In this document: positions 10,797 to 14,569 of the stretch, piece after piece
Layout: each line of letters opens with the position of its first letter
Position numbering within the stretch: position 1 is the first letter of the stretch
NCBI RefSeq assembly: GCF_042656905.1
Contig: NZ_JBHSMZ010000004.1
Location: forward strand, 570,221 to 594,220
DNA: 24,000 nt
Reading direction: 5' to 3'
From: Massilia aerilata
GTDB taxonomy: Bacteria > Pseudomonadota > Gammaproteobacteria > Burkholderiales > Burkholderiaceae_D
Position numbers and translations under genes: made by a program
Notes under the pieces: generated by a model
Seen by the model: the letters and a program-made list of their open reading frames with translations, nothing else
The model's database searches: none
What the model was told of the DNA's origin: nothing

Positions 10797-11696
10797 TCAG
10801 GTCCTGACGGCGGCCAGGGCCTGGCGGCCGGCGTCCAGCGTCGGCAGCAGGCGCACGCCGGCCACGCCCTCGAGGCGCGCCACGCCGGCGCCGCCGGCCC
10901 ACAGCTCGACCTCCGGCGGCAAGGCCTGGCGCAGCTGGGCCAGCACGGGCCCCACCTGGCGCCGCGAATAAGCTGCCGAGAAGGACAGGGCCACGATGCC
11001 GGCGCCGTACGCGCTTGCCGCGCGCGCGATGTCGAGCAGCGGCGTTTCGAGGCCGAGCGAGATGCAGTTGGCGCCTTCGAGCGAGAACAGGGCCTCGGCC
11101 ATCAGGAGGCCGAGGCCGTGCCCTTCGCCGGGGACGGTGGTCATCAGGATGCGCGGGCCCTGGCGCGCGGCGGGCAGGTCGGCGATCGCCTGGCGCAGCT
11201 GCTGCTGGGCCGACTCGGTATAGAAATGTTCGTCGAAGACGTCGAAGCTGCCGTCTTCCCAGCACGCGCCGACGGCCGTGGTCAGCGGCGCCATGGTGTG
11301 CTCGACGAAGCGCTCCAGGCCCTGGCGCGCCAGCGACTGGCGCAGCGCGTGGCGGAACACGGCCGGGTCGCGCGCGCGGATCGTTTCCAGCAGGCGGGCG
11401 ATGGCGCCGTTCTGGCCCTCGTCGTCCGCGGCGCGCTGCGGCGCCGCCAGCGCGGCCAGTTCGCCATGCTCCAGCGCGGCCAGCGCGCCGGGCCGGTGGC
11501 CCTGGTCCATCAAGCGCTTCATCAGGCGCAGGCGTTCGACCTGCTCGCCCGGGTAGCAGCGTTCGCCGTTCGCGTCGCGCACCGGCTGCGGGAAGCCGTA
11601 GCGGCGTTCCCAGACCCGCAGCACGTCCTTGGACAGGCGCGTCTCGCGCTCGACGGCGGCGATGCTGAAAGTGGGCGATGTGATGGTGGCGTTCAT
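10797..11696 (-). CDS. CarH/LitR-type MerR-family transcriptional regulator with a cobalamin-binding photoreceptor domain
   Basis: N-terminal MerR HTH FSIAAVERETRLSKDVLRVWERRYGFPQPVRDANGERCYPGEQV. W146-x9-E156-H157 (ACWEDGSFDVFDEH) matches the CarH Wx9EH signature. E191-G-H193-G-L-G196 matches the B12 lower-ligand motif E/DxHxxG, followed by ...LGLETP...SFS...GGAG. It is collinear with Thermus CarH as I remember it. Its ATG overlaps the upstream stop (ATGA at 11693-11696). Confidence 0.85.
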   Translation of the reverse strand: MNATITSPTFSIAAVERETRLSKDVLRVWERRYGFPQPVRDANGERCYPGEQVERLRLMKRLMDQGHRPGALAALEHGELAALAAPQRAADDEGQNGAIARLLETIRARDPAVFRHALRQSLARQGLERFVEHTMAPLTTAVGACWEDGSFDVFDEHFYTESAQQQLRQAIADLPAARQGPRILMTTVPGEGHGLGLLMAEALFSLEGANCISLGLETPLLDIARAASAYGAGIVALSFSAAYSRRQVGPVLAQLRQALPPEVELWAGGAGVARLEGVAGVRLLPTLDAGRQALAAVRT

Positions 11697-12961
11697 GGAA
11701 CAGCCATTCTAGCGCGGCAGAGCAGGGCCGCGCCATCGTAGCGGATCACGGCCAGCAGGCGCCGCAGGTCCTGGTCGAGGCGCCGCTCGGCGCCGGCCAA
11801 GGGCACCAGTTCGGCGATGCGCGCCATGCAGTCGAGCAGGCCGGCCCCGAGCCGGCGCGGCAGGCCGTCCGGGTGGCGCAGGGCGCAGGCCTGGCGCACC
11901 GCCACCAGCAGCGCCGCCGCCACCTGTTCCGTCAGTTCGACCGCGCGCAGGCAATCGCGCGCCGCGATCATGCCGGTGCCGGCCTTGTGGACCACCGCGT
12001 CCGGCGTCAGCCTGAGCGCCTCCGCGGTCCAGGCAGAAACGCTGGCCTGCAGCGCCTTCAGGCCGTGGCCGCCGGCCGCGCTGCGCAGGCCGGGCGGCAG
12101 GCCCTTGCCGGCGCAAGCGTCGGCCACCAGCGCCATCTGCTGTTCGAACAGGTCGGCGAGCTTGGTCACCGCATTCTTCATGCCTTCCATCGCGAACCTC
12201 AGGTGGCCGGCGTGGTCCTGGAAAAGCGGATCGCCGCCGGCGCTGTTCAGTTCCAGTTCGATGTGGCCGATCATCCAGGGCAGGGCGTCCGCCAGGACCC
12301 CGATCACCTGCGGCGCGCAGCGCAGCGGCGCCAGGTCGTGCGGCCGCACGGCGCCCGTCGCCTGGCCGAGGTCGTCGCGGATCCAGCCGGCCGCGCGCAG
12401 CGTGCCGGGGTAGGGCCGGGCCGCGAACAGGGCCTGGTCGAAGTGGGCGGCGTTGGCGTCCAGGGCGACGGCGGCCAGCGCCGCGATGCGGCCGGCCAGC
12501 CTGCACAGGCTTCGCGCGCGCACCGCCGCCAGGCAGGCCAGGCCGGTCATGGCGGCGTCGCGGTCGATCAGTGCCTGGTCCTCGGCGGCCAGCGCCGGCG
12601 GCGCGTCGTCCTCGAGCAGGGCGGCCAGCCGCCGCAGCGCGTCCATGCCGGCGCCGGACCCGCCCTGGCACAGCGAAGCCAGGCGCACCGCGAGGATCGC
12701 GCGGGTCTGCTCCGGCGTGAAAGGCGTGTCCAGGCCGGCGCCGTGCCAGCTGAAGAGCCGCTGCGGCGCATCGCCATCGCCGGCCAGGCGCTTGAGCCGC
12801 GCGGCGCCGGCCTCGATGCGGTCGGCAAAGGCCGGGTCGCCGGACAGTACCGGCCGGGCGCGGCCCGCGGCCAGGGCCTCGATTTCGTCCACGGTGACCG
12901 GGCCGGCGCCAAACACCACGGCGGGCAGGCCGCCGGCCGGGAGGTCGATCTGCATGATCAT
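11693..12961 (-). CDS. Histidine/tyrosine ammonia-lyase-fold protein (TAL position in the pyp cluster), apparently lacking the MIO Ala-Ser-Gly loop
   Basis: 422 aa. These segments align to P. putida HutH (from memory): [51 protein letters not shown] with [71 protein letters not shown] with [20 protein letters not shown]; and NSAGGDPLF with NAVSDNPLVF. No GS(V)GASGDLAPL segment and no YGxNTGFG segment is present. The start was chosen at the ATGA overlap with the pcl stop (12958-12961). The track start at 13417 lies inside pcl. Confidence 0.75.
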   Translation of the reverse strand: [422 protein letters not shown]

Positions 12962-14175
12962 GGGGCGATGCTCCAGTCGGCGGGCTTGCCCAGCATGCCG
13001 CGCGGGATGCGTTCGCCCAGCGTGATCGCCTTCGGGCGCTCCGGCGCGGCCAGTCTGGCGTCGGTCCAGGCGCGCAGTTCCTGGATAAAGCCTTCGCCGG
13101 CGCCGGCGCGCGGCACGATGAAGGCTTTCAGGCGCTGGCCTTCGTCGGGGCGCATCAGGCGCACGGCGGCGTCCTCGACCAGCGGGTGCTCGAGCAGGAC
13201 CTGGCGCACGCGCTCCGGGAAGACGTTGACGCCGCCCACCTGCACCGCGCTGTCGCGGCGCGGACCGAGCGTAAACCGGTCGTCGCCGCACCAGGCCAGG
13301 CTGTCCTGCGGGTGCAGGGCCTGTGCTTCGCCATCGGGGCCGCGGCGCAGCAGCGCATCGCCGGCCCGTTCGATGTGCGGCAGCAGGCGGTAAGGATCGC
13401 GGTGCGAGGCGCGCCAACCCAGGCCGCCGGTCTCGGAAGCGCCATACACCTGGACCAGCGCCAGGCCCGCGGCTTCGGCGCGTTCGGCCACCGCATCGGG
13501 GCAGGGCGCAGTCGAACTGACGCCGGTCACGTCATTGGGGAAGTCCTGGTCCGCGCCCAGCGCCGCCTGCCAGAACTGCGGATGGCCGATCGCCAGGTCG
13601 CCGGGCAGCAGGTGGCGGGCCAGCTGCGACGGCAGGCGCGCGCGCACGCTCAGCACCTGGTCCGCTTCGAGTCCGAGATGGCGCGGCAGCAGCACGCCGA
13701 ACAGGAAACCGTAGATGTGATGCGCCGGCACCGCCAGCAGCAGGCGCCGGCGCCCGCTGAACAGCGTGGCCAGGCTGGCCGCTTCCTGCTCCAGCGTGGC
13801 GAGGGCGTGCGCGCAGCGTTTCGGTTCGCCGGTGCTGCCGGAAGTGCGGAAAGTCAGTTCGGCATCGCGGTGCTGCAGGCCCGCGGTGGCGATGTCGAGC
13901 CAGTCGCCGAGGGTGCGGCGCGCCAGCAGGTAGTCTTCGACGCCGCTGTGCTGCAGCTGCAGGGCCTCGGCCAGCGCGCCCGCCAGCTGCAGCAGCTCGA
14001 GCGAATCGACGCCCAGGTCCTGTTGCAGCGACAGCGAGGGCTTCCAGCCGTCCGGCAGCAGCAGCGGGTCGTGGCGCAGCGCCGCCAGCTCGCCCGCCAC
14101 CAGATCGGCGACGAAGCGCAGCAGGGCGCTGCGGTCGGCCCACCACGGGGCAAGAAGTGCGCTCGGTGCTTGCAT
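12958..14175 (-). CDS. Adenylate-forming enzyme, p-coumarate ligase-like (pCL position), with an N-terminal carrier-protein-like domain
   Basis: 405 aa. AMP-binding core motifs: FRTSGSTGEPK (A3), YGASETGG (A5), RRDSAVQVGGVNVFPERVRQVLLEHPLVEDAAV (A8) and a terminal GKPADW Lys. Residues ~20-90 contain LQQDLGVDSLELLQLAGALAEAL, which resembles a phosphopantetheine-attachment site. The ATG is 4 nt after the pyp stop. Confidence 0.8.
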   Translation of the reverse strand: MQAPSALLAPWWADRSALLRFVADLVAGELAALRHDPLLLPDGWKPSLSLQQDLGVDSLELLQLAGALAEALQLQHSGVEDYLLARRTLGDWLDIATAGLQHRDAELTFRTSGSTGEPKRCAHALATLEQEAASLATLFSGRRRLLLAVPAHHIYGFLFGVLLPRHLGLEADQVLSVRARLPSQLARHLLPGDLAIGHPQFWQAALGADQDFPNDVTGVSSTAPCPDAVAERAEAAGLALVQVYGASETGGLGWRASHRDPYRLLPHIERAGDALLRRGPDGEAQALHPQDSLAWCGDDRFTLGPRRDSAVQVGGVNVFPERVRQVLLEHPLVEDAAVRLMRPDEGQRLKAFIVPRAGAGEGFIQELRAWTDARLAAPERPKAITLGERIPRGMLGKPADWSIAP

Positions 14176-14179
14176 GGGC

Positions 14180-14569
14180 TTACAGGCGCTTCACGAAAAT
14201 CCAGTAGGTGCCGTCGCTGATGGCCTTCTTCATGTGGATTTTTACTTTTGTCGGGGTCATTTTGTAGTCGAACACGTACTCGAACATCGTGTTCAGGTTA
14301 CTCGCGCGCACGCCGGCGTCGAACACGCCCTTGAAGCGCGCGGTGTTGGTGCAGGGCGCGACGTCGCGGAAGAAGTTGGTGCCGATCACGGCGCCGGCGT
14401 GGCGGCCGGTGATGTCGGCTTCGGCCTGATTGTAGCGCAGGACCTTGCCCTGGCCATCGAGCTGGATGGCGCCGAAAGCCAGTTCGTCGATCTGCTTGCC
14501 CGACAGCTGTGACAGCTTGTTGTCGATGTCGTCCTTGCCGAAGGCGATTACGTTGAGGGTAGACAGCAT
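14180..14569 (-). CDS. pyp: Photoactive yellow protein (blue-light PAS photoreceptor, p-coumaroyl-Cys chromophore)
   Basis: 129 aa. It aligns end to end with Halorhodospira halophila PYP as I recall it, at roughly 60% identity by hand count. Examples are [51 protein letters not shown] and YW.FVKR. Pocket residues are conserved: Y46/E50/T54/R56/C73 correspond to Hh Y42/E46/T50/R52/C69. A strong SD (AAGGAG) lies 6 nt upstream. Confidence 0.95.

Follow-up and report, generated by a model that had tools for sequence, protein, structure and literature searches.

How does p-coumarate reach photoactive yellow protein (PYP), and why should the ligase that activates it begin with a domain resembling an acyl carrier protein (ACP)? 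The question is posed by a 24,000-nucleotide stretch of the Massilia aerilata genome (assembly GCF_042656905.1, contig NZ_JBHSMZ010000004.1, positions 570,221 to 594,220; hereafter the window), in which pcl, the gene for a 405-residue PYP-activation ligase (12958..14175, minus strand), has its ATG 4 nt past the stop codon of pyp (14180..14569, minus strand). The product of pyp, which scores 179.6 bits on TIGR02373 against a cut-off of 143, is the presumed acyl acceptor, through the equivalent of Cys69. PYP serves as a model among photoreceptors, and holo-PYP is commonly produced in Escherichia coli from the pyp-pcl-tal cassette; the activation step has so far been taken as ordinary coenzyme A (CoA) ligation. 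This work indicates that the front of the ligase is a carrier-protein homologue, whose candidate attachment serine is retained in relatives that have no separate ACP encoded beside them. We judge there to be a somewhat better than even chance that the enzyme is a self-loading carrier-ligase, passing p-coumaroyl to Cys69 of apo-PYP.

A carrier-like domain at the front of the adenylation fold

The ligase belongs to family TIGR02372, scoring 337.0 bits against a cut-off of 334.7 (336.7 bits when repeated in a genome-wide search), and is the only ligase of this type in the genome. Because its residues 14-397 correspond to profile positions 4-384 of 386, and thereby cover the profile nearly end to end, the short front end is the normal architecture of the family, rather than a peculiarity of the window gene. 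The preliminary description of this locus had remarked on the early position of the A3 phosphate-binding loop (P-loop), and TSGSTGEPK does indeed occupy residues 111-119 (13819..13845, minus strand). Solved canonical ANL enzymes, including plant 4-coumarate:CoA ligases (4CLs), are about 500-540 residues long and, where the alignment extends that far, have the counterpart of this loop at about residue 150-161; their PDB alignments place residues 99-108 of the window ligase onto chain residues 147-161. Likewise, the Pfam AMP-binding match starts at residue 111, which is profile position 170 of 384, leaving profile positions 1-169 without a counterpart.

From residue 106 onwards, the protein consists of a reduced ANL N-terminal core (residues 106-305, 13261..13860, minus strand; motifs HHIYGF, STAPCP and YGASETG), which aligns with PaaK2, canonical ANL enzymes and the aryl-polyene ligase ApeH, followed by an ANL C-terminal subdomain (residues 306-405, 12961..13260, minus strand) with hinge residues R306/D308, the A10 lysine Lys397, and a PF13193 match over residues 325-395. 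Conservation was assessed in 143 of the best relatives, with pairwise identity of at most 50%, drawn from 648 found at E 1e-30 or better among 1.84 billion cluster representatives. The catalytic motifs (TSGSTGEPK, 111-119; YGASETG, 244-250; R306/D308; G396-K397) are intact and invariant or nearly so in this set: G113 and R306 are invariant, S112, G116, D308, G396 and K397 nearly invariant, and the core motif residues Y244-G245 and E248 are also conserved. When the whole model was searched with VIA-align, canonical ANL enzymes matched at Z of about 17-18 over 330-350 residues, and PaaK2, an ANL enzyme with a short N-terminus, aligned from model residue 100.

The preliminary description had proposed that the segment before this core is carrier-like, and the comparisons bear this out. 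Residues 11-105 (13861..14145, minus strand) are predicted by AlphaFold2 to form the four-helix bundle of an ACP (helices 15-34, 58-72, 80-84 and 89-102); the predicted local distance difference test score (pLDDT) was 95.8, and the predicted template modelling score (pTM) 0.91, for the whole protein modelled from the 143-sequence alignment, while the domain alone reached a pLDDT of 89.8. All structures used here are predictions. A profile built from a 55-sequence alignment of the domain, and searched against all PDB sequences, returned acyl carrier proteins as all 60 of its best matches (E 3.5e-5 to 0.06), aligned on the DSL motif and including the PigH doublet ACP, plant and mitochondrial ACPs, and E. 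coli AcpP. These 60 matches include no ANL enzyme, though the PDB contains hundreds. The fold searches agreed, in that ranks 1-50 listed by Foldseek were ACPs or ACP-containing entries (template modelling score up to 0.80), and the top 50 matches from VIA-align, a Foldseek-independent search of 48,161 chains, were all ACP or peptidyl carrier protein entries (Z 8.2-11.6, root-mean-square deviation about 2 Å, 73-85 of 95 residues). Against NCBIfam, the isolated domain matched TIGR02372 itself (43.7 bits, profile positions 4-92), all other matches being ACP models. The Pfam domain check suggested in the preliminary description was less clear-cut: AMP-binding did begin only at residue 111, but PF00550 (PP-binding), matched at residues 49-75, scored 16.7 bits (E 0.009), and 19.4 bits in a second scan, both below its gathering cut-off of 20.8 bits. 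The family profile, in contrast, matched solved ACPs at E 3.5e-5 to 3e-3.

Could this resemblance be fortuitous, the N-terminus being instead a shrunken remnant of the ANL A1/A2 region with a first helix that happens to look like carrier helix II? The ANL A1 helix (L-T/S-Y-x-E-L, then an amphipathic helix) does resemble DSLELLQLAGALAEAL by eye, and the whole-model VIA-align matches span canonical ANL enzymes from the first residues. However, hhalign matched the domain profile to three ACP targets at E 6e-4 to 4e-3, whereas the first 135 residues of ApeH, which represent a canonical N-terminus, gave E 0.24 over 6 columns and so no alignment. The absence of ANL enzymes from the best PDB profile matches, and the fit of all four helices to the carrier topology, also argue against a remnant. 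An ANL remnant or chance motif was rejected on the PDB profile search, VIA-align and hhalign, and we regard it as very improbable. Judged by profiles and models, the N-terminal ~100 residues are a genuine carrier-protein homologue that takes the place of what precedes the P-loop in other ANL enzymes.

Conservation of the serine motif

The phosphopantetheine-attachment-like motif recognised in the preliminary description is present as LQQDLGVDSLELLQLAGALAEALQL (L-G-V-D-S-L-E-L-L). Within its G-V-D-S-L-E, Ser58 (codon TCG, 14002..14004 on the minus strand, and so read 14004-14002) stands at the start of helix II in the AlphaFold2 model, and is a candidate 4'-phosphopantetheine site by sequence, conservation and helix position. 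Ser58 is conserved in 131 of the 143 representatives, Asp57 in 134 and Trp92 in 135, and the family consensus resembles an ACP from helix II to helix IV. On a 45-residue fragment, TIGR02372 gave 29.2 bits for the wild type, 26.8 for an in-silico S58A variant and 25.1 for D57A, showing that the curated model prefers D-S at these columns; both variants also scored lower on ACP models.

The preliminary description's question of whether this architecture is common can be answered: a D-S-bearing carrier architecture is the rule among PYP-linked ligases. Compared via the TIGR02372 model, the p-coumarate:CoA ligases (pCLs) of the Halorhodospira halophila and Rhodobacter pyp operons share the family, length, gene position beside pyp and N-terminal domain of the window ligase. 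There is no architectural difference between them, and the family is described as a CoA ligase.

Some relatives depart from this plan in other ways. P0161 has tandem five-residue repeats (LDTLG) at about residues 120-140, near the expected D-S-L position. Two natural fusions were also seen, of a D-S-bearing ligase with a HATPase_c (histidine-kinase-type) region in P0142 (1080 residues), and of a ligase apparently without D-S with a full aromatic ammonia-lyase in P0230 (1322 residues).

Retention of the serine and the presence of separate carriers

Whether a ligase keeps the serine was compared with its genomic surroundings across 161 loci, comprising 80 from species-representative genomes, 80 metagenomic loci seeded with serine-less members, and the window. 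Each was classed by the residue that hmmalign placed in the Ser58 column, and by hidden Markov models (HMMs) for PYP and, in two versions, for ACPs. The serine was kept at 144 loci, window included; a PYP homologue was found in the flank of 136 of these, and a stand-alone ACP in none, with either ACP HMM. Across the window's span of its contig (C4), the sole PP-binding signal is the ligase's own N-terminal domain. The serine-less clade comprised 14 loci (including two duplicates), none with PYP in the flank and 10 with a stand-alone PF00550 ACP; the remaining four, without a detected ACP, have very short flanks. Among the eight serine-bearing loci without PYP, several are cut by contig ends, while L010, L029 and L074 have full flanks in which the ligase lies amid unrelated housekeeping genes, with neither an ACP nor a ketosynthase (KS); the PYP of these three genomes is presumably encoded elsewhere.

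In a tree of the catalytic core, eight serine-less representatives were adjacent in leaf order (clade support unchecked), alongside a few scattered singletons. Those members of the group that have a name belong to Desulfovibrio or Desulfobulbaceae. At the serine-less locus L084, Pfam identified as neighbours a KS, a KS resembling a chain-length factor (CLF), an LpxL-type acyltransferase, a family-2 glycosyltransferase (GT2) and a B12-radical-SAM protein, and open reading frames homologous to those of L084 recur in 7-9 of the 10 serine-less loci examined. The serine-less ligases sit in aryl-polyene-like clusters. The order at L084:241-7107 is B12-radical-SAM protein, GT2/DUF2062, LpxL-type acyltransferase, ACP, KS, CLF-like protein and ligase, with matching parts at L087, L094, L118, L126 and L136; from gene content, the serine-less family member at these six loci is probably the starter ligase of Desulfovibrio-type aryl-polyene-like clusters.

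The difference between the groups extends beyond the serine. At matched core identity (35-50%), N-terminal domain identity was 17% for the serine-less clade and 31% for serine-bearing pairs, suggesting that the whole domain is decaying in the serine-less clade, where constraint would be relaxed. Hence, from the locus distribution and the domain identities, the serine and the conserved domain surface are kept exactly where no separate carrier is encoded, and have gone where there is one.

Kinship with aryl-polyene ligases

The preliminary description had likened the putative chemistry to starter-unit loading in aryl-polyene (APE) systems, and this analogy proved well founded. The ApeH sequence used was from a plasmid-borne enterobacterial APE cluster of Enterobacter, with the order CLF, acyltransferase, ApeE, ApeF, hypothetical protein, AMP-binding protein, dehydratase, GT2, thioesterase and LolA. 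Among NCBIfam models it scores highest on TIGR02372 (82 bits, core only), above all other ANL models, and hhalign matched it to the pCL family with 99.6% probability (E 9e-25) over a region that starts shortly ahead of the P-loop and runs to the end of the protein. This best reciprocal family match is accompanied by a similarly short ANL core, shared motifs (HHIYGF in the window ligase and QHLYGL in ApeH; YGSSETxG), and a presumed common activity on aryl acids. ApeH-type aryl:ACP ligases are the nearest characterised relatives of the ligase's catalytic core. ApeH is a demonstrated aryl:ACP ligase, which uses ATP but no CoA to attach p-hydroxybenzoate, and also p-coumarate, to the phosphopantetheine thiol of holo-ApeE (PMC12624758, citing Grammbitter 2019). 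A functional analogue, known here from the literature alone, is XanA2 of Xanthomonas, reported as a 3-hydroxybenzoic acid:ACP ligase in xanthomonadin synthesis (PMC6859482).

The same division recurred when 401 genomes, sampled evenly from the phylum, were searched with TIGR02372. Two full-length ligases were found, the window's own and one in genome G262, which has the D-S motif, PYP directly upstream and a full tyrosine ammonia-lyase (TAL) gene downstream. A further 28 matches were restricted to the core, and 25 of these 28 have an ACP within 1.5 kb.

These enzymes differ in where the carrier lies. ApeH has a canonical A1/A2-type N-terminus, and its carrier, ApeE, is encoded by a separate gene beside KS and CLF genes, whereas the window ligase has a carrier-like domain fused at its N-terminus, no KS or ACP nearby, and a photoreceptor as its acceptor. 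The serine-less TIGR02372-like ligases share the family's core, with a TIGR02372 score of 264 bits, and retain a recognisable vestige of the same N-terminal domain, but have lost D-S, have a decaying domain, and adjoin stand-alone ACP, KS and CLF genes rather than PYP. Hence three grades may be distinguished by sequence: ApeH, with a canonical N-terminus and a carrier in trans; the serine-less ligases, with a vestigial domain and a carrier in trans; and the PYP-linked ligases, with a D-S-L domain and no carrier in trans. Given this pattern, the simplest reading is that PYP-linked enzymes carry the acceptor thiol in cis. The complementarity between Ser58 in cis and an ACP in trans, together with the link to ApeH, is new comparative evidence on how PYP is matured.

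A proposed route from p-coumarate to the photoreceptor

In the self-loading enzyme that we favour, the ACP domain (residues about 11-105) is fused without a linker to the reduced ANL core, in place of the pre-P-loop subdomain, and would be phosphopantetheinylated at Ser58 by a host 4'-phosphopantetheinyl transferase (PPTase), AcpS or a HetI/AcpT-like enzyme, encoded elsewhere in the genome. The ANL core would adenylate p-coumarate and move the acyl group onto its own pantetheine thiol, either within one polypeptide or between the two subunits of a dimer. From there the tethered p-coumaroyl thioester would be transthioesterified to Cys69 of apo-PYP, the product of the gene 4 nt upstream. The segment ahead of the P-loop in canonical ANL enzymes contributes to binding the nucleotide part of CoA where the pantetheine tunnel opens, and a carrier domain replacing that segment would therefore be well placed. 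Activated p-coumaroyl esters acylate apo-PYP readily in vitro, and therefore the final step would need no extra enzyme. We infer Ser58 modification, self-loading, direct hand-off to PYP and independence from CoA as parts of this one scheme. In our estimate there is an even chance that PYP matures without free p-coumaroyl-CoA, by way of a fusion of carrier and ligase that arose from the starter module of an aryl-polyene pathway (an ACP plus an ApeH-like ligase) and delivers directly to apo-PYP Cys69. The interpretation offered in the preliminary description is partly supported: what it said of the domain and of the likeness to aryl-polyene systems stands, and the chemistry is a proposal.

Any modifying enzyme would have to come from outside the window, in which, as the preliminary description had stated, no PPTase is encoded. 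The genome has two PF01648 PPTase genes, AcpS and HetI/AcpT-like, both on another contig. The HetI/AcpT-like gene (contig C6, 430643-433586) lies just downstream of a 1366-residue open frame with a weak PP-binding match, and this frame, rather than the ligase, is probably its dedicated partner.

Known systems offer partial parallels. Adenylation followed by thioesterification onto a protein-bound pantetheine is the chemistry of the adenylation-thiolation (A-T) didomains of nonribosomal peptide and polyketide synthetases, and of aryl-acid adenylating enzymes that work with aryl carrier proteins, as EntE does with EntB; PigI-PigG, PltF-PltL and thiolation-state LgrA are among the structural matches of the whole model. 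In an A-T didomain, however, the carrier is C-terminal to A10 on a flexible linker, whereas in the window ligase it precedes the A domain, replaces part of it and has no flexible linker, and neither a condensation nor a ketosynthase partner follows downstream. LuxE, an acyl-protein synthetase of the PaaK-like branch of the ANL superfamily, keeps an activated acyl group on its own cysteine and passes it to a partner's cysteine; it likewise transfers a self-held acyl group to a partner, differing in its use of its own cysteine instead of a pantetheine arm. Plant and Streptomyces 4CLs, and FlxY, use the same substrate and are expected to perform the same two-step chemistry. FlxY, known here from the literature alone, is a demonstrated CoA ligase (PMC3992019).

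This last group represents the conventional explanation, in which the window enzyme is an ordinary 4-coumarate:CoA ligase, its ACP-fold domain an unmodified pseudo-carrier, serving as a structural stand-in for the lost N-terminal subdomain or as an entrance for the CoA nucleotide or pantetheine, and free p-coumaroyl-CoA acylates apo-PYP. Several observations favour it or tell against self-loading. The family name and the accepted pathway agree (PMC12826048), and holo-PYP forms in E. coli supplied with TAL and pCL, meaning that under the carrier model an E. coli PPTase must accept the domain, which is plausible. The N-terminal domain is rigidly fused to the core (pTM 0.91): helix IV ends at residue 102, and a strand at 106-110 runs straight into the P-loop. 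Without a flexible linker, the reach of the arm to the active site is questionable, although a dimer acting in trans is a possible way round. The PF00550 score is below gathering, and of 120 relatives just 9 come within E 0.01. The serine is missing from part of the family, including representatives scattered among serine-bearing branches (P0157, P0257, P0236 and perhaps P0188); if these are PYP-linked, then the serine is dispensable. No PPTase was found in the 161 flanks, in a low-sensitivity search with the genome's AcpS and HetI-like proteins as queries. Finally FlxY, the ligase of flexirubin synthesis, is an efficient producer of 4-coumaroyl-CoA in vitro (PMC3992019), and therefore ligases of bacterial aryl-polyene pathways can use CoA. 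Yet a purely structural role leaves unexplained both why 92-94% of representatives keep D-S precisely where a carrier has it, and the decay of the domain in the very clade with a separate ACP next door, and the enzymes nearest to the core charge carrier proteins rather than CoA (PMC12624758). In the PYP papers searched, support for the CoA route comes from co-expressing the genes in living E. coli (PMC12826048, references 53 and 81), and PMC3992019 speaks of no more than 'hints' of a 4CL in PYP biosynthesis. The searchable literature contained no report of in vitro CoA-ester formation by a PYP-type pCL, and equally none of a carrier domain in a PYP ligase; a recent PYP review mentions neither carrier nor phosphopantetheine. 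In the searchable PYP literature, the CoA route is assumed rather than demonstrated, and we consider conventional CoA ligation a serious but rather unlikely account of the window enzyme.

A third scheme would dispense with both CoA and the pantetheine arm, the enzyme being a coumarate:PYP ligase that transfers directly from the adenylate to Cys69 of apo-PYP, with the ACP-like domain as a docking platform. The tight linkage of pyp and pcl, seen at 136 of the 144 serine-bearing loci and in the 4-nt spacer of the window, would suit such a partnership, as would conservation of the N-terminal domain specifically in PYP-linked lineages. However, in ANL enzymes the thiol enters via a long pantetheine tunnel, and the adenylate is probably out of reach for a cysteine borne by a folded PAS protein of 14 kDa. 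Moreover, a docking platform gives no reason for keeping a D-S-L motif like that recognised by PPTases. Direct transfer therefore seems to us improbable, though less so than the fortuitous resemblance rejected above.

The surrounding operon

The ligase is the second of four head-to-tail genes on the minus strand, comprising pyp, pcl, a TAL-like gene and a CarH-like regulator; the 4-nt spacer between pyp and pcl is followed by two ATGA overlaps. Close relatives come from Massilia/Telluria. The TAL-like gene (11693..12961, minus strand) overlaps the pcl stop codon through ATGA, and encodes a 422-residue protein that matches PF00221 in part. As only profile positions 68-124 and 177-451 are matched, the segment forming the 4-methylideneimidazole-5-one (MIO) group is missing. 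The short form is also present in L098, a metagenomic relative at 94% identity, where it is 90% identical over the 422 residues, while the Massilia loci L005 and L006 gave alignments of 509-514 columns to the 422-residue query, suggesting longer, full-length genes there. The window's genome has one full-length PF00221 gene, on contig C24. The final gene of the operon (10797..11696, minus strand) encodes a CarH-like MerR/B12-binding regulator, with matches to MerR_1, B12-binding and NF052513 (CarH); it is translationally coupled to the operon's end by ATGA, and is present in the closest Massilia relatives (L003-L008).

At L019, L025, L032, L036, L038, L042 and many other loci there is a further ligase subfamily, which is about 50% identical and has kept D-S. 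It adjoins a divergently transcribed PYP-like gene, the product of which is 28-36% identical to the window's PYP, and several Massilia genomes carry both ligase/PYP pairs, as in L006 with L036 and L008 with L042.

Implications

If the PYP-linked ligases do load and deliver p-coumarate on their own carrier domain, the textbook pathway of PYP maturation would change, and thousands of database entries would be misnamed as '4-coumarate--CoA ligase'. The yield of holo-PYP in heterologous hosts would then depend on a suitable PPTase, a practical matter for optogenetics and biosensors. It would also reveal an evolutionary link from the starter modules of aryl-polyene pigments to the maturation of a photoreceptor, in which the chromophore is attached post-translationally through the mediation of a carrier protein.

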